Both the position numbers and the translations under genes were made by a program. This document shows positions 34,318 to 47,241 of a DNA stretch of 64,000 nt, in pieces. The DNA is from a virus, in UHGV virus genome UHGV-0021337. The stretch is one strand, 5' to 3'. The notes beneath the pieces were generated by a model, which saw nothing but the letters and a program-made list of their open reading frames with translations, made no database searches and had not been told where the DNA came from. How positions within the stretch are numbered: the first letter of the stretch is position 1; each line of letters begins with the position of its first letter.

Positions 34318-34499
34318 AGCAAGAAATCTAAACTTCTCGACTTTCTTGAATTTGTTAAGTTACTAGAAGTTTCAAGTACTAAATTACTTATCAATTTAAT
34401 TTAATAGTTTTGTATATGATTATAGCTTCTGGAGTTTTAGGTTATAGGTCTTGGTGGGCCCACCAGTTAGCCAGACTCTATAATCACTCTAGAGGTTGT

Positions 34500-35414
34500 A
34501 TGAATACAGGTGAATTAAAGTATAAATTACTAGAAACAGGTTTGTTTATTGATAATAACTACTTAGACAAGTATGTTCAACATGTGTTAACTCAAAATCA
34601 GCTTGTACATGTTAACTATCAAAGTGAAAAGCATCATATAATTCCACGTTGTTACTTTGTCGAGTTACATAAACCTGTTGATAATTCTTCGGAAAACATT
34701 GTAGATTTAATGCGTTCTGATCATTGTATAGCGCATGTGTTGTTAAGCTTATGTGCAAAATCTTCACGATTACAGCAAGCCAACTATACTGCTGCGTATT
34801 ACACATTGCGAACAAAAGGCAAAACTAAAATGCCGATTGAGGATATCAATAAACTTCAATCTTGGTTGCAAGAACTAAATCTTTCAAAAGCTGTGGACTT
34901 TACAAAGAGTGAACAGTTTAAATTTTTACATACACAACTTAGATGGTATACCGACGGTAAGAGTGAGTTGTATATGTCTATAGATAAAACAGTTCCCGAC
35001 GGTTATTTTCCTGGACGACTCAGAACTAGATTACAAGGTCTAAACAAAGGCACATTCTGGGCCAACGATGGAGTTAAAAACTTTAAAGTTACTTCACTTG
35101 ACAGTTTACCTGAAGGTGTACATGCAGGTATGTTACCAAGTGAATCAAAACACTGCAATTGTGGTCGTTTTGAACGCACACAAGCAACAAGAGATAAGTT
35201 AAGTGCTGCTCGTAAAGCTTATTATGCTAAAAATCCAGGGGTACGAAACGCAGGCAATTTTGTTAAAAGACAAGTCGGAATACTTTCTGGTCGTATCAGT
35301 ATAACTAATGGTGTTAAGAATAAGTTTATATTTAAGGAAGACCTTCCTAAGTGGGAATCAATAGGCTGGTACTGTGGATCAACTCAGGTGTGGCATAAAC
35401 GTAAAGGGAAATAA
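34500..35414 (+). CDS. free-standing HNH homing endonuclease
   Basis: HNH motif …EKHHIIPRCYFVELHKPVDNSSENIVDLMRSDHCIAH… of HNH_3 type, with a Cys/basic C-terminal DNA-binding region. It is inserted between portal and scaffold genes. ATG at 34500 follows tctagaggttgt; the track ORF begins at 34410. Confidence 0.7.
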   Translation: MNTGELKYKLLETGLFIDNNYLDKYVQHVLTQNQLVHVNYQSEKHHIIPRCYFVELHKPVDNSSENIVDLMRSDHCIAHVLLSLCAKSSRLQQANYTAAYYTLRTKGKTKMPIEDINKLQSWLQELNLSKAVDFTKSEQFKFLHTQLRWYTDGKSELYMSIDKTVPDGYFPGRLRTRLQGLNKGTFWANDGVKNFKVTSLDSLPEGVHAGMLPSESKHCNCGRFERTQATRDKLSAARKAYYAKNPGVRNAGNFVKRQVGILSGRISITNGVKNKFIFKEDLPKWESIGWYCGSTQVWHKRKGK

Positions 35415-38734: not shown

Positions 38735-38871
38735 ATAATTCATAAAACTTTAGTTACATTCAACTAAATTATTTATATCAAGTGTGGTAAAGAGTCTTTA
38801 TGACTTTTACATAGCGCTTAAGAGACTAGTCACACCTCCGCTAGTCTCTTGAGTTGCAGATTAAGGAACTT

Positions 38872-39597
38872 ATGGATTTTAAGTCAATTATTGAAGAAGT
38901 AAAATCAAACGTTACCGGCGGTGGTATACTAGAGTGTGAGCTAACCGACGAACAGTTTGGAAAAATTATAGATGCTTCATTTCGCGAAATACAGAGGTAT
39001 ATTGATGATACGCGTCTATTAACTTTACCTTATTCAAAATGTATTGACCTATCTGATAAATCCATATCCGCTGTAGTTCGAGTATACAGAGCAGTTGGAT
39101 ATCTTGCAGGAGATTCTGACACAGTAAGTAACGGAGGTTTCCCTGCTGACCCGATGTATATGGCTCAATGGCAGCTTTTCTCAGGCCCAAGTTCTTTGTA
39201 TAATGTTGACAATTTTGCTATGAATTATGGAGCTTGGAACACTGCGTTGCAAATAAAAAATACTGTTTCGACAGATCTCATATTCAGATATGAAAGATAT
39301 AACTCGAAACTTTATATAAATTGTCCTTATGACGTTCCAGAAAAAATAACAATCGAGTATATACCTCGGTATAACAATGTTGAAGAAATTGTTTCGGACT
39401 TCTGGATTGATAATCTACTTCGTCTATCTATTGCACAAACAAAGATTGCTTTAGGTAGATTAAGAACAAGGTTTACACAAGACAACGCATTGTGGCAGCA
39501 AGATGGTGAAACAATACTTGCCGAAGGACAAGAAGAATTGAAAGAAATACGGGAAAAATTAGATGCAGCAAGCCAGCTGTGCTACCCGGTTGATTAA
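38872..39597 (+). CDS. hypothetical structural protein
   Basis: ATG at 38872 follows aaggaactt; the track ORF begins at 38854. Confidence 0.4.
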   Translation: MDFKSIIEEVKSNVTGGGILECELTDEQFGKIIDASFREIQRYIDDTRLLTLPYSKCIDLSDKSISAVVRVYRAVGYLAGDSDTVSNGGFPADPMYMAQWQLFSGPSSLYNVDNFAMNYGAWNTALQIKNTVSTDLIFRYERYNSKLYINCPYDVPEKITIEYIPRYNNVEEIVSDFWIDNLLRLSIAQTKIALGRLRTRFTQDNALWQQDGETILAEGQEELKEIREKLDAASQLCYPVD

Positions 39598-39623: not shown

Positions 39624-41354
39624 ATGAGCATTATTCTTAATGAGGCATTTAGACAACTTGAAGCTATGGATCAGGATGTTTTTGATGCTGATAAGGAAGG
39701 ATTAAAAAAGCTTGATGCATTCCTGGACAATGATGAAGCAACCGATGTTTCGGTAGTTATCGACCCAGATGCAGAAAACGAAGATGAGTTGAAAGATTCT
39801 TACATAGGCAAAATACTTTGTCGTTGTGTGGTTTGTCAGTCAGATATAATGAAAGACGAAGATGACCTGCACGAAGACGAGGACTGTCCTGATGTAGTTA
39901 ATTGTGGTGAAGAGTGTCCTATGTGTCAATCTGTTGACGGTTATAAAATTATAGGACGAATTGCCCCTTACGAACTGCAGGATAAAGTAGAAGCTGACTT
40001 AGTAGAAGACTTACATGAAGGCGAAGATAAGAAAGAGCTTGATGATTACTACGACGATGTTGTAAACGCAATGATGGATACGTATTCCTACCTAACCAAA
40101 AACAAAGATGCTCTTATGTTTGCAGTAGATCCTGCTGTGTCTTGGTATGAAGATGATTATATGGATTTTACAGGCGAGTATCCCGACAATCCCGAAGACT
40201 CTATCATGGTGTCGAAAGATGATTTTAACAAATTCTTGAGACATTGGGTCAAACAATCTAAATGGGAAGAAATTCTTGCTGATGGTGTTAATGCGTACTT
40301 TGATGAAAATCCTGATGTCCTTAGAGAAGCTAAAGACGTCACTAAAGGCGAAAAGTCCATTGCAGCTGTTCTAAACAACGCTGAAAATAAAGCTAAAATG
40401 GAAGCGGCTGGTAGCGACGTAGAAAAGTTGAAAAGTGCTGTTTTAGACATACTTGAAGCTGATGAACTTAAAGGTAATAAAGCAATTGAAGACGCTAAAA
40501 GAATTCTTACTAATGCTGAAGGCTTTAAGTTTTTAACAACTCTTACAACTTATATGACTGGCAATAAGATTATAAGCAATAAGAGATATAACAAAAAAGA
40601 TGTTAAAGAAGCGTTTGCAGCTGCAGATTTAGCGGAATATCAAAGATGGGTTGACTTCGACATGAAGAAATATGGACGTATTTCCGATATTACAAAAAGC
40701 AAACTTGATAAAGCAGGCTTAGAAGTTGTTAAAGATGATCATGGAGACTACGAAGTTATCGCAAAAGAGGATGATGGAAAAGTTATAAATGAATCTGTAG
40801 ACAGCGTTGAAGTTAAAGCTGACGGTCAGAAAGTTGAAGTAAAACAAGAAGACGATAAAACTACAGTTGAAGTAAGCAAAGAATGTGAGAAGTGCGAAAA
40901 CGCTGAAACTATTGCTCCTATCGACGAAGTAGAAGAAAAAGAAATTGAAGCTAAACTCGACGCTAACGATGATGAGTTAGACATTGACGAGTTCAGCGAA
41001 GAAGACTTTGACGAATTAGGTGAATCTTATCTTAAACGTGTTTATGAAAATGTAGATGCGTATAAAACTACAAAAGGTTCTGTAAACGGAAATAAGATAA
41101 TGCTCGAAGGCGTTATAACATTCAAGTCTGGAAAGAAAGCAAAAACAAATTTCATGTTTGAATCTGCGAACAAAACAAAATCCGGAAAACTTAAATTCCT
41201 CGGTGAAAATAAACAGTTTGCAAAGAATAAAGCGTTTACTTTAACTGGACATAAAGACGGCAAAAAGTTGTTTATCGAAAGTTTTAACTACAAATATGCG
41301 ATAAAAGACGCAGACGGTAAATCGAAACAACTTTACGGAACTGTTAAGAAATAA
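39624..41354 (+). CDS. hyper-acidic protein with Cys4 zinc ribbon and Lys-rich C-terminus (576 aa)
   Basis: The N-terminal ~450 aa is extremely D/E-rich, with CRCVVCQS…CPDVVNCGEECPMCQS. The C-terminal ~110 aa is K-rich. It lies in the head/neck module. Confidence 0.45.
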   Translation: MSIILNEAFRQLEAMDQDVFDADKEGLKKLDAFLDNDEATDVSVVIDPDAENEDELKDSYIGKILCRCVVCQSDIMKDEDDLHEDEDCPDVVNCGEECPMCQSVDGYKIIGRIAPYELQDKVEADLVEDLHEGEDKKELDDYYDDVVNAMMDTYSYLTKNKDALMFAVDPAVSWYEDDYMDFTGEYPDNPEDSIMVSKDDFNKFLRHWVKQSKWEEILADGVNAYFDENPDVLREAKDVTKGEKSIAAVLNNAENKAKMEAAGSDVEKLKSAVLDILEADELKGNKAIEDAKRILTNAEGFKFLTTLTTYMTGNKIISNKRYNKKDVKEAFAAADLAEYQRWVDFDMKKYGRISDITKSKLDKAGLEVVKDDHGDYEVIAKEDDGKVINESVDSVEVKADGQKVEVKQEDDKTTVEVSKECEKCENAETIAPIDEVEEKEIEAKLDANDDELDIDEFSEEDFDELGESYLKRVYENVDAYKTTKGSVNGNKIMLEGVITFKSGKKAKTNFMFESANKTKSGKLKFLGENKQFAKNKAFTLTGHKDGKKLFIESFNYKYAIKDADGKSKQLYGTVKK

Positions 41355-41379
41355 TAACTGATAGTGGAGGACGCCGTTA

Positions 41380-43590
41380 ATGAGTAAGTTATATGAAGAT
41401 AACAGAGCTCAGTTGATGGCGGCGAGCCGTTCAGCTCAAAAAGAGAACGACGGAAAAACACGCTATCAAAAAAGACTAAACTCTAGTATAGCGAGTTCTA
41501 ATCGAGAGTACAACCAAATCGACATGAACTCGTTATTCAAGAATAATATTTTAACTGTTAATATTCCCGTCAGAGGAGAAACGGATAACTATATTGTTAC
41601 TTTTTCCTTTGGCGGATTTTTAGATAAACTACACGACGAGCTTGAGCGTAATAACGAACAACTTCAACTAAGAGTTGTTATAAGAGCTGTTGTTGATTGT
41701 TTCAATTCAGACAATGTTTACATACGATGTAATTGTTTACATCCTGATACAGAAATCTTGCTTCTAGACGGGACCAAGGCTCGTGTCGAAGACTTGTGTA
41801 CTCGTTTTAACAGTGGTGAGCAGTTATTTGTCTACTCTACTGACGATAAAGGAGATTTTAAGCCAGGCGTTGTTCGCAATGTTTGGAAATCGGGAAGCTC
41901 TTCTGAGCTTGTCAAAGTTACTCTTGATAGCGGAGACATCATTCAGACAACTCCAGACCATAGATTTATGCTGCGTGATGGCTCATATATTGCCGCCAAA
42001 GACCTAAAAGAACATCAGTCACTGATGCCAATGTATTTTTCAGACTACAACGGTTACCAAACTGTTAAATTTAATAGTACTGGAAAATATCACTCAGTGT
42101 ATAAACAAGTTGCATCAGAGTTACTGGCTGATAAAATTACTGCTGCAGAGATTCGTGAAGCATCAGCCGATAAACACGGACCTTACAAAGTAGCAATTCA
42201 TCATAAAGATTTTAATAAGCGTAACAACACTCCAACTAATCTAGAGCCGCTTACTTGGGAAGAACACTGGATGTATCATGCGTCCTTAGGGTTCAATTCA
42301 TTCCCTAAAGAGACGCAAGATAAGATTAGAACTAGAGCTTCAGAATGGATGCAATGGTTAAACGCACATCCAACTGAAAAGATGTTAGAGCTAAGAAAAG
42401 AATACTGCGAGCGCGGTCGTTTAATGAATTACTTACCTGAACGGCAAGAACAGCAACGACACGTGATGAGTAAAGCAATAACAACGTACTGGCAAACGAT
42501 GTCAGACGAAGAGCGTGAGCGTCAGTCAAAAGCTAGGTCCGAGCGTTCTAAAGCTGCTGCGGAACGGGGATGTCTTAAAACCGAGAAGTTTCACACAGCT
42601 GCACTTAAACGGGGTAAAGATATGCACACAACTGAGCGCGAAAAGCTAATTGTAGCAGGTGTACGTAGATATTGGAACTCTCTTAAGGGTGAAGCTCGAG
42701 AGGCACGTGTTGCTATCTGTAGGAAAAATATTCAGAAATCTATCGACGCACGTCGAGGAACTCCTCTTACGCAAGAACACAAGGATAAAATACGTGCTAG
42801 TCGAGAACGTGAAACTCCTGAACAGCTTGCAGTTCGCGTGCAAAAATGTAACGAAACTAAAATACTTACTGTACTAAATTATCTGATAGATAACAAGCTA
42901 GAATTGACTTTGGACAACTACAACCAAATCAAAAAACGCGAATTCAACTCGTATCCCTCGATTGATAAACGATTTGAATCTATTGATGATGCTGTTAGCT
43001 ATTTCCAACTTAATCACAAAGTTGCAAAAGTTGAGTTCGTGCATCTAACTGACCCCATTGACGTTTATGATATAGATGTTGATACGTGGCACAACTTTAC
43101 AACAGCTGCAGGGGTTGTTCTGCATAATTGCGAGGACTTCCACTATCGTTTTTCCTATTGGGCCACAAAAACTGACATAATAACAGGTCCTAAGGAAAAT
43201 ATACCTTCGGATATAACAAACCCGAGCAACACCTTGGGCAAAGGCTGTAAGCATATAATGCTCTGTCTTTCTAATACCAGATGGTGTATAAAAGTAGCCG
43301 CTGTAATTAAAAACTACATTGAGTACATGGAAAGACATTTACAGTCAATGTATGCAAAAGTTATCTATCCTGCAATTTATAAACGCGATTATGAAGAGCC
43401 TATACAACAGTCAATGTTTGATACAGATGAATTAGAAACTAGTAGCGAAGTAATTGACACTGCAAGTAAAGAGGCTCGCAAGAAAGGTCAATTCCAAACT
43501 GGCAATCCGTATAGATTTACTAAACAACCAGATAAAGACCAAATATCCATTGACGACATCGAAGTTGAGGACGAGGTAAGTGAAGAATGA
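41380..43590 (+). CDS. intein-containing protein of unknown function (extein ~272 aa after splicing)
   Basis: The N-extein ends …IRCN, the intein runs from CLHPDTEILLLDG… to …VVLHN, and the C-extein starts CEDFHYRF…. The RBS is strong (ggaggacgccgttaatg). Confidence 0.6.
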   Translation: MSKLYEDNRAQLMAASRSAQKENDGKTRYQKRLNSSIASSNREYNQIDMNSLFKNNILTVNIPVRGETDNYIVTFSFGGFLDKLHDELERNNEQLQLRVVIRAVVDCFNSDNVYIRCNCLHPDTEILLLDGTKARVEDLCTRFNSGEQLFVYSTDDKGDFKPGVVRNVWKSGSSSELVKVTLDSGDIIQTTPDHRFMLRDGSYIAAKDLKEHQSLMPMYFSDYNGYQTVKFNSTGKYHSVYKQVASELLADKITAAEIREASADKHGPYKVAIHHKDFNKRNNTPTNLEPLTWEEHWMYHASLGFNSFPKETQDKIRTRASEWMQWLNAHPTEKMLELRKEYCERGRLMNYLPERQEQQRHVMSKAITTYWQTMSDEERERQSKARSERSKAAAERGCLKTEKFHTAALKRGKDMHTTEREKLIVAGVRRYWNSLKGEAREARVAICRKNIQKSIDARRGTPLTQEHKDKIRASRERETPEQLAVRVQKCNETKILTVLNYLIDNKLELTLDNYNQIKKREFNSYPSIDKRFESIDDAVSYFQLNHKVAKVEFVHLTDPIDVYDIDVDTWHNFTTAAGVVLHNCEDFHYRFSYWATKTDIITGPKENIPSDITNPSNTLGKGCKHIMLCLSNTRWCIKVAAVIKNYIEYMERHLQSMYAKVIYPAIYKRDYEEPIQQSMFDTDELETSSEVIDTASKEARKKGQFQTGNPYRFTKQPDKDQISIDDIEVEDEVSEE
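41734..43128 (+). mobile_element. intein (Hint domain) carrying an HNH endonuclease domain, ~465 aa
   Basis: Block A is Cys1 in CLHPDTEILLLDG. Block B is TPDH in GDIIQTTPDHRFMLRDGSYIAAKDL. Blocks F/G are VYDIDVDTWHNFTTAAGVVLHN followed by the +1 Cys. The internal HNH motif is AIHHKDFNKRNNTPTNLEPLTWEEHWMYH. Confidence 0.7.
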
Positions 43591-44078
43591 AAGATATAGG
43601 TATTCTTTACAACGAACAAAATCTTAAACTACAAAGAATTTACTTTAACCAGATGCTTCGTATGATTGGTATAAAAGTACTTCATTACGCTCCTTTACCG
43701 GGTAAAAGATACACAACATATGCAGAAATAAAAACAGCCTTCGAGGAACCAGTTGTTACTGGATGCGTATTTGAAGAACATCCTACTCAAAAAACAATGA
43801 AGAAGTTAGGCTGGGATTCTGAAAGACAAGAAGATGCTTCTTTGATAAGTGTGCCTTATGACTTAGCTCATGTTCAAGCAGGCTCTCTATTTGCTTTACC
43901 AAGCGGTATTGATAATTCAGAAGCGAGACTATTTAGAGTTGTAGAGATGAGCACTATAATGCTATATCCTGCATCGATAACGTGTAAACTAGTTCCAGAA
44001 TGGGCAAATACAGCTCGAGAATCACAGATTGTTAATTTTAAGACACAAGATTTTAACTTGTTAAGAGAGGAAGAATGA
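43587..44078 (+). CDS. hypothetical protein (neck / head-tail joining region by position)
   Basis: ATGA overlap with the upstream gene. Confidence 0.4.
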   Translation: MKDIGILYNEQNLKLQRIYFNQMLRMIGIKVLHYAPLPGKRYTTYAEIKTAFEEPVVTGCVFEEHPTQKTMKKLGWDSERQEDASLISVPYDLAHVQAGSLFALPSGIDNSEARLFRVVEMSTIMLYPASITCKLVPEWANTARESQIVNFKTQDFNLLREEE

Positions 44079-45894: not shown

Positions 45895-47241
45895 ATGCCT
45901 AAGATTACAATATATGAATCTGACTTGACAGGCTCTCAATACACAGGAGACGAGATTGTCGTATTTCTCCCTGGTAACTGTATAATTGCAGACGGTAAAG
46001 CAGATAAGAATGGTTGTATACTAATTCCCGAAAAATCAATTTTATCAAACTACATTTATTCAGATTATGTGCAACTGATTACAAATGTGTTGACTGCTAA
46101 AGAAATATTTGTGAAAACAGATTACACAGTTTCTACAGATGATGACAGCAATACTGTACTTACATTTAGTCTCGCAGGAACATATACATCTGCACTAGAC
46201 GCGTTGAACGCTACAAGCATACCTGAAAATGCATACCAAGCTAATGACCAAAAAAAGACAATAACAATTACTAAATATGCTTCCGATGACAGCTATTTAT
46301 TCGCAGAAATGTTGACAAATAAAGGATTCCAAGTGTTATACTATTCTGGCGCTATAAATACTGCACTCTTTGAAAATACTTGGTTCAAAGATAAAAATGA
46401 ATATAACATCAAGTATCTAACAACAGGTATGAACGGTTCACTTCCTGTAGATAAGGGCACAGCATTATATGCGTTGCTCATTTCAATATGCAATAGCAGA
46501 ATGGACTGTGTCGCGTTGATTGACACTTTGAAGCCAACAAAAAATTACACATATGACGACTTGAAAAAAGCTGTTCAAAATGTTAACGATGAAGAAGGAC
46601 GTGCTGCATTATTTGCAGATTGGGGATACATAGACGCATTAAATAACAAGATGATGCCTGGTTCTTATTTCTATCTTAGTGCATTAGGCGATTCTGTCAA
46701 CGCAGGAAAGAAGTGGGATTCTATAGCAGGTGTTAAACGTGGTGTATTGACGAGTTATGTTAAACCTGTAGCTCTTAATCTTTCGAAATACGATTTAGAT
46801 AACAACGTTATGGATTTAACCGCAGAAGGCAACCGTAGTTATAATGGTATTGTTAACATTAGACCTTATGGTTGGACAATCTGGGGGGACAGAACTCTTC
46901 GTCTAAATAATTCTGGCACAGGTTTGAAAGCAACTTCGTTTTTAAGCATAAGAGTTCTTGTTTGCGACATAGCAAAAAGAGCATACCAATCTGCTATAAA
47001 CAATACTTTTGAAAGCAACAACGATGTAACTTGGATGAATTATAAAACTTCCATTACACAGTTGCTTGACAAGATGGTTGCCGATTATAAGTTAGCTGAT
47101 TATAAGATAGTTAAACTTCCTTCAGACCGTGTTGCTCAAATAAAATGTAAAATAAGACTTGTTCCTATTGAACCTGTTGAAGATTTCGACATATACATCA
47201 ACCTCGAAAACGCTACTGCGAACATTGAGGAACAGGGTTAA
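45895..47241 (+). CDS. contractile tail sheath protein
   Basis: 448 aa. The C-terminal conserved sheath signature reads …NIRPYGWTIWGDRTLR…. A tube-like gene follows. RBS aaggagaggtagtag. Confidence 0.7.
   Translation: MPKITIYESDLTGSQYTGDEIVVFLPGNCIIADGKADKNGCILIPEKSILSNYIYSDYVQLITNVLTAKEIFVKTDYTVSTDDDSNTVLTFSLAGTYTSALDALNATSIPENAYQANDQKKTITITKYASDDSYLFAEMLTNKGFQVLYYSGAINTALFENTWFKDKNEYNIKYLTTGMNGSLPVDKGTALYALLISICNSRMDCVALIDTLKPTKNYTYDDLKKAVQNVNDEEGRAALFADWGYIDALNNKMMPGSYFYLSALGDSVNAGKKWDSIAGVKRGVLTSYVKPVALNLSKYDLDNNVMDLTAEGNRSYNGIVNIRPYGWTIWGDRTLRLNNSGTGLKATSFLSIRVLVCDIAKRAYQSAINNTFESNNDVTWMNYKTSITQLLDKMVADYKLADYKIVKLPSDRVAQIKCKIRLVPIEPVEDFDIYINLENATANIEEQG

Follow-up and report, generated by a model that had tools for sequence, protein, structure and literature searches.

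An intein-bearing gene and its parts

The window analysed here, a 64,000-nucleotide stretch of the virus genome UHGV-0021337, contains an open reading frame (ORF) of 736 codons in which two extein-coding parts flank an intein with a putative HNH endonuclease domain (Table 1). The identical 736-residue precursor is encoded on four metagenome contigs, one of which is a scaffold of 144,491 bp. A preliminary description of the window, made from the nucleotide sequence alone, had recognized a Hint organization in this ORF, with Cys1, a TPDH motif, a terminal motif and a +1 Cys. All of these elements are present, with Cys1, the His-Asn pair and the +1 Cys near-invariant in the homologs, and both the boundaries proposed for the intein (nucleotides 41734–43128) and its length of 465 residues proved exact. 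The intein starts at residue 119 with the motif CLHPDTEILLLDG (CLHPDTE), carries TPDH at residues 191–194 and ends at residue 583 with VYDIDVDTWHNFTTAAGVVLHN (VVLHN), after which the C-extein begins at residue 584 with CEDFHYRF. The Pfam family Intein_splicing (PF14890) matches residues 127–583 with 62.6 bits (cut-off 35.8, E 4.8e-17), TIGR01445 (intein_Nterm) matches residues 119–197 with 55.8 bits (cut-off 24.5) and TIGR01443 (intein_Cterm) matches residues 561–584 with 22.0 bits (cut-off 15.6). At the sequence level, solved DnaE inteins are matched by intein residues 4–95 and 428–464. An AlphaFold model of the precursor (mean predicted local distance difference test score 81.7) has a beta-rich N-terminal splicing half, and its 38 Foldseek matches to the PDB at E ≤ 1e-3 all have the Hint fold, being either inteins or hedgehog autoprocessing, bacterial intein-like and similar domains, with E values as low as 8e-7 for the RecA, DnaE and DnaB inteins. 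Residues C119, T191, H194, H582, N583 and C584 are invariant in 79 intein-bearing homologs; in a larger collection, TxxH is found in 139 of 139 intein-bearing proteins and His-Asn in 138 of 139, and the combination of Cys1, His-Asn and Cys+1 occurs in every one of the 109 fully aligned inteins. By its sequence and predicted fold, the insert is thus confirmed as a class-1 intein of the Hint superfamily.

The limits of the insertion are set by relatives that lack it. A search with the conceptually spliced extein retrieved 296 relatives, the top ones being intein-less, exactly 271 residues long and 93% and 88% identical to the query. Their alignment with the precursor (A1) opens a single gap of 465 columns, which follows the 'x' of an invariant C-x-C and directly precedes its second Cys, so that the intein-less homologs display a precise 465-residue insertion and not a contiguous conserved sequence, as the preliminary description had anticipated. 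At L004 and L005, both of them intein-less loci of human gut metagenomes, the DNA alignment with the window stops at 41735 and restarts at 43125, and the intein-less site of L004 reads AATTCAGACAACGTGTATGTTCGATGTACT/TGCGATGACTTCAAATACAGG, the stroke marking the point of insertion. The intein-less junction of these two loci and of a third one, L006, is the candidate cleavage target. A megablast search of nucleotides 41000–44000 against 50,697 phage records returned no match, and there is no close sequenced isolate; the nearest major capsid proteins, from Bacillus phages HSE3 and SP-15 and Listeria phage LIS04, are about 32% identical.

Between the two splicing halves lies the stretch AIHHKDFNKRNNTPTNLEPLTWEEHWMYH (residues 272–300), in which H274, H275, K280, N283, N287, L288, H296 and H300 are invariant among the 79 intein-bearing homologs and for which the model proposes two strands (271–275 and 288–292) and a helix (293–302). 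The splicing profiles cited above exceed their cut-offs on the whole ORF, and the Pfam family HNH_3 (PF13392) does so only on an isolated segment of 128 residues, where its score of 24.9 bits for a cut-off of 24.8 is borderline for the window's copy; 20 of 20 homologous segments match this family (best E 6.4e-8). PHROG families annotated as HNH endonuclease also match the intein ORF (1.2e-6 and 4.4e-5), and no LAGLIDADG family appears among its Pfam matches, even at E ≤ 1. These matches bear out the assignment of the endonuclease to the HNH type, and not to the LAGLIDADG type, in the preliminary description. The helical array that follows the HNH motif is the length-variable part among the homologs, in which inteins of 302–495 residues all keep HNH. 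It matches no Pfam family and self-BLAST revealed no internal repeat; a label of NUMOD3-like repeats was dropped for that reason and because no Pfam NUMOD family was matched at E ≤ 1. From its position, this array is presumed to be the DNA-binding part of the endonuclease.

Table 1. Position of the intein gene, of its domains and of the surrounding genes in the window
Feature	Position (nt)	Strand	Remarks
Precursor ORF (N-extein, intein, C-extein)	41380..43590	+	736 aa, 85.6 kDa; frame continuous, stop-free
N-extein, aa 1-118	41380..41733	+	ends ...VYIRC117-N118; alignments A1 and A2 with intein-less homologs
Intein, aa 119-583	41734..43128	+	465 aa (1395 nt), 54.1 kDa, isoelectric point 8.7
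N-terminal Hint splicing half	41734..42090	+	block A Cys119; block B T191-P-D-H194 (nt 41950-41961)
HNH nuclease motif	42175..42285	+	H274 H275...N283...N287...H296...H300; predicted strand-strand-helix
Array of about 10 helices, from HNH motif to C-terminal splicing half	42292..43002	+	model helices aa 310-541
C-terminal Hint splicing half	43012..43128	+	blocks F and G; ends H582-N583
C-extein, aa 584-736, and stop codon	43129..43590	+	+1 Cys584 at nt 43129-43131
Terminase-like gene	start 29621
Portal	start 31685
Free-standing HNH gene	34410..35414	+	between portal and prohead protease
Prohead protease	start 35417
Major capsid protein	start 36929
T4 gp13-like neck/adaptor gene	38854..39597		upstream of the acidic gene
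Acidic protein	39624-41354	+	576 aa, 24% Asp+Glu; directly before the intein gene
Four unannotated genes			between the intein gene and the sheath
Tail sheath	45895-47241	+	448 aa
Tube	start 47253

The host protein and its genomic context

Once spliced, the extein has 271 residues, so that the size of about 272 given in the preliminary description was nearly right. C117 is the first Cys of the CxC motif and the +1 residue Cys584 (C119 in the spliced numbering) is the second, while C623-K-H625 (nt 43246-43254; C158 and H160 after splicing) completes a CxC...CxH signature. Neither the 94 intein-less nor the 79 intein-bearing homologs show any variation in the signature residues C117, C584, C623 and H625, and K624 is invariant too. 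The Pfam family SWIM (PF04434) matches 24 of the 94 intein-less homologs (best E 7.3e-6) and leaves the window's own copy unmatched; matches in BFVD include proteins from large phages named 'SWIM-type domain-containing'. Judged by this signature and these matches, the extein is probably a divergent SWIM-type zinc finger, and since the intein splits the CxC, its +1 Cys is predicted to bind zinc. No member of the family carries a database name. The gene had been called uncharacterised, but with its SWIM-type signature the extein is not featureless.

When 1.84 billion cluster representatives were searched with a profile, 741 members of the extein family were identified. Among the best 150 of these representatives, 28 have an insert of at least 100 residues at the intein site, and in 98 the N-terminus is extended by at least 100 residues. 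An ART-PolyVal domain was found in four of the ten extensions tested; the protein of the window has no such extension. Packaging and injection are predicted for phage proteins that have effector domains such as ART-PolyVal and whose genes lie among the late ones (PMC5512222). Combined with this prediction, the fusions of the relatives and the gene context suggest that the extein is a module associated with the virion, and the SWIM-type module may serve as a carrier or anchor for injected effectors.

The extended and variable proteins of the family are exemplified by P0264, P0260, P0287, P0312 and the product of L010 871-4266. The contig of P0264 reads TGA as Trp: the gene (L009 75-3008) has TGA in frame at seven positions, one of which corresponds to a conserved Trp of the SWIM module. 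This suggests a phage in which a stop codon is recoded, in a code similar to genetic code 4. The possibility that the ART-PolyVal fusions are artefacts of stop-codon recoding was rejected because P0287 is a fusion encoded in the standard genetic code. We also considered that the acidic 576-residue protein could correspond to the N-terminal extensions of the fused relatives. This was discarded, as no similarity was detected apart from one weak match, and that match involves the C-terminal part of a relative devoid of such an extension.

The gene sits in a T4-like morphogenesis block, within the head-neck-tail module (Table 1). The order from the gp13-like neck gene to the sheath is shared by the window and the records of Bacillus phage SP-15 and Listeria phage LIS04, where distant intein-less homologs of the extein occupy the same place. 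The preliminary description had located the extein between a hyper-acidic protein and the neck genes; the acidic gene does adjoin it, but the gp13-like neck gene is found upstream of the acidic one. A separate HNH gene of a different kind had also been reported about 7 kb upstream, and this finding stands. The free-standing ORF matches phrog_655 'homing endonuclease' (E 2.7e-14) and phrog_12434 'HNH endonuclease' (E 6.8e-9), has no match in Pfam or NCBIfam and is not detected by the hidden Markov model (HMM) of the intein family, and thus belongs to a different HNH lineage.

Several features of the neighbouring genes were noted in passing. The acidic protein contains Cys-rich motifs (CRCVVCQS ... 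CPDVVNCGEECPMCQS), matches no Pfam or PHROG family and varies in size in the relatives (540, 478 and 364 residues). The sheath has 448 residues in the window versus 337–378 at the same position in L004, L006 and L007, and the loss of DNA similarity at about 46030–46320 suggests an extra inserted domain. In the SP-15 record (L001 1046-3563), the major capsid gene is annotated as two joined pieces with an endonuclease gene in between, a further mobile element of this structural module.

Insertion sites and mobility of the intein family

The best 120 relatives of the intein, 34–100% identical to it, all reside in the same extein family. We collected 139 intein-bearing proteins; their inteins use three insertion sites, all of them within five residues of the SWIM CxC. 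Site a (..C-x/C-[PED]-D..), the one used in the window, has 113 members, whereas site b (..CxC-x-D-[FWY]/C-Y-R..) has 23 and site c (..CxC/C-D-F..) three. Homologous inteins distributed over the three sites are exemplified by proteins P0161, P0171, P0172, P0175, P0187 and P0250, among others, and at sites b and c the +1 Cys stands where intein-less proteins have a residue other than Cys. In a rough neighbour-joining tree the site-b inteins mostly cluster, suggesting a shift of site. The HNH motif is kept in all 128 inteins of at least 300 residues and is absent from the 11 shorter ones, eight of which are mini-inteins of 140–151 residues; empty sites, full HNH inteins and HNH-less mini-inteins thus coexist in a single family. 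The pairing of this intein with a SWIM-type host is a large undescribed metagenomic family. The extein had been presented as novel, and both it and the insertion site are indeed undescribed, but the case is not a one-off, since hundreds of metagenomic relatives have the same intein in the same gene.

Comparison of the window with the intein-bearing locus L007 gave a DNA identity of 88.4% for the intein versus 70.3% and 66.0% for the two exteins. At third codon positions, the identity is 76% for the intein, 41–48% for the exteins and 38–52% for five neighbouring genes. Since the intein is far less diverged than the exteins, its age in one or both of the two lineages must be well below that of the host gene, which indicates a recent horizontal transfer of the intein. 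Base composition was uninformative as a sign of foreign origin, given that the GC content at third positions (GC3) is the same in intein and exteins despite a higher overall GC in the intein (0.41 versus 0.36). The same intein family was also found outside its usual host. In a related metagenomic phage, a gene coding for a terminase-like protein of 1051 residues (L010 5756-8911, + strand), located beside a T4-type portal gene, carries an HNH intein of this family (hmmsearch 2.9e-52) with a +1 Ser, hence the intein family has moved between host genes.

Proposed mechanism, alternatives and relation to known inteins

Taken together, the anatomy of the ORF, the precise presence/absence polymorphism, the conservation of all catalytic residues and the fact that the intein is much younger than its host gene make it very probable that the 85.6-kDa precursor contains a self-splicing and homing class-1 HNH intein of 465 residues that interrupts a 271-residue SWIM-type protein of the head-neck-tail module. 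Splicing would be post-translational and would follow the four standard steps: an N-S acyl shift at Cys119, transesterification of the peptide to Cys584, cyclisation of Asn583 aided by His582 and, finally, an S-N shift ligating ...RCN to CEDF.... It would restore the CxC...CxH zinc site and set free the 54-kDa intein, which would then act as a homing endonuclease, with the HNH catalytic motif and the helical DNA-binding array held within the Hint fold. During co-infection, the intein would nick or cut the intein-less allele near ...CGATGTAMT/TGCGANGAYTTC..., and recombinational repair would copy the intein into the cut allele.

Some observations weigh against this interpretation. On the whole ORF, the match to HNH_3 (residues 266–296) reaches 21.9 bits and stays under the cut-off of 24.8, and a profile of the HNH region run against the PDB sequences gave only a spurious match (E 0.08), so that no solved HNH enzyme was linked to it. 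The GC3 of the intein (0.335) falls within the range of the exteins (0.33–0.35), and thus the intein is not compositionally foreign at third positions. Its younger age could reflect ordinary recombination between co-infecting phages instead of homing driven by the endonuclease. Lastly, the actual splicing and DNA cleavage are the part of the explanation that we infer.

The intein could also be splicing-competent and immobile, having been domesticated so that its HNH domain no longer drives homing and it descends vertically, possibly as a post-translational switch that delays the zinc site. Its location exactly on a predicted zinc ligand would fit this scenario, as would the modulation of the splicing of other inteins by zinc and redox state (PMC7765530) and an old intein-extein pairing, with intein identities as low as 34% in the same gene. 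We nevertheless regard domestication as unlikely, because the HNH residues do not vary among the 128 inteins that reach 300 residues, the intein is much younger than the host gene between two lineages, close relatives with exteins 88–93% identical have no intein, and HNH-less mini-inteins coexist with full ones as the homing cycle predicts. A non-splicing Hint-like or bacterial-intein-like domain, either retained in the mature protein or only cleaving, would have in its favour a weak match to Pretoxin HINT that stays below its threshold (16 bits versus 27.7). It is nevertheless very improbable: the full conserved class-1 set of Cys1, TxxH, His-Asn and +1 Cys is in place, the top structural matches are true inteins, and the invariant zinc motif is split in a way that only exact splicing restores. 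Since the window derives from a metagenome assembly, we also considered that the contig could be chimeric or that two genes could have been read through as one. The probability of such an artefact is negligible, given that the identical 736-residue protein occurs on four contigs, that independent samples yielded hundreds of clusters of homologous precursors and that the reading frame is continuous and stop-free.

A further proposal would make the intein more than a passenger. In the precursor a CxC is retained as C117-N118-C119, using the intein's own Cys1, and for this reason zinc binding or a disulfide at the junction could gate splicing. The metal or redox state at the split zinc site would then control splicing in a virion-delivered protein family, whose relatives carry injected effector domains. 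As a second part of this idea, the extein family would be a so far unrecognised MuF-like packaging anchor for polyvalent proteins. We consider the proposal improbable; if true, redox or metal conditions in the infected cell would decide whether a virion-packaged anchor or effector carrier matures.

The intein of the window can be compared with class-1 inteins that possess an endonuclease, such as PI-SceI/VMA, PI-PfuI and Mtu RecA, and with the cores of the DnaE, DnaB and RecA mini-inteins. Both have a Hint fold split by the endonuclease, the set of Cys1, TxxH, His-Asn and +1 Cys, and a place of insertion inside a functional motif that is conserved in the host. They differ in the endonuclease, which is of LAGLIDADG type in those inteins and appears here as an HNH motif with a helical array, and in the host, which is an enzyme of replication, repair or nucleotide metabolism in the former and a SWIM-type zinc finger of a phage structural module in the latter. 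The HH...N...N...H motif and the predicted strand-strand-helix are shared with the free-standing HNH_3 homing endonucleases of phages (PF13392), of which I-HmuI is an example, with the difference that the motif is embedded here in an intein. LAGLIDADG is the usual intein endonuclease (PMC5050341, PMC7765530), and H-N-H is among the listed families of homing endonuclease genes (PMC7765530). The preliminary description judged an HNH intein in a structural-module extein unusual, and HNH inteins are uncommon; the type has, however, been known since 1997 from the work of Dalgaard et al. (cited in PMC3384342 and PMC5050341). In the HNH inteins described earlier, HNH likewise lies between the splicing blocks; the extein and insertion site found here are different ones.

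Clustering in conserved motifs, sporadic distribution and horizontal transfer are likewise traits of the mycobacteriophage inteins (Kelley et al. 2016, PMC5050341), in which the TerL1-a and TerL1-b sites, one residue apart in the P-loop, provide a precedent for adjacent insertion sites (PMC5050341). The TerL inteins on which cleavage was assayed in that study have an endonuclease domain of LAGLIDADG type, and the hosts of mycobacteriophage inteins are mostly nucleic-acid-binding enzymes (PMC5050341), whereas here we deal with gut phages of probable Bacillota, an HNH motif and three sites within five residues of a zinc-finger motif. The extein family resembles the MuF-type virion anchor domains (Iyer et al. 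2017, PMC5512222) in being a conserved late-gene module with relatives fused to other domains, ART-PolyVal included. It has no detectable sequence relationship to MuF, and its conserved module is C-terminal and not N-terminal. A full-text literature search found no paper linking inteins with SWIM proteins and nothing relevant on a SWIM zinc finger in combination with the phage virion. The kind of element has thus been known since 1997, and what is new is the host protein, the insertion site and the large undescribed family.

With these data, the range of inteins gains a zinc-finger host from a phage structural module, in which the +1 nucleophile doubles as a predicted metal ligand. Empty sites, inteins of 302–495 residues, mini-inteins of 140–151 residues, three insertion sites and a copy in a terminase-like gene make up a natural series within one HNH-intein family, which allows shifts of site and of host to be studied and offers a test of conditional splicing by inteins placed at metal sites. 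Protein and genome engineering could draw on the series as well, for new Cys-dependent mini-inteins and a modular HNH nuclease. Finally, the analysis draws attention to an uncharacterised SWIM-type module, fused to ART-PolyVal in relatives, as a candidate anchor for delivery with the virion.

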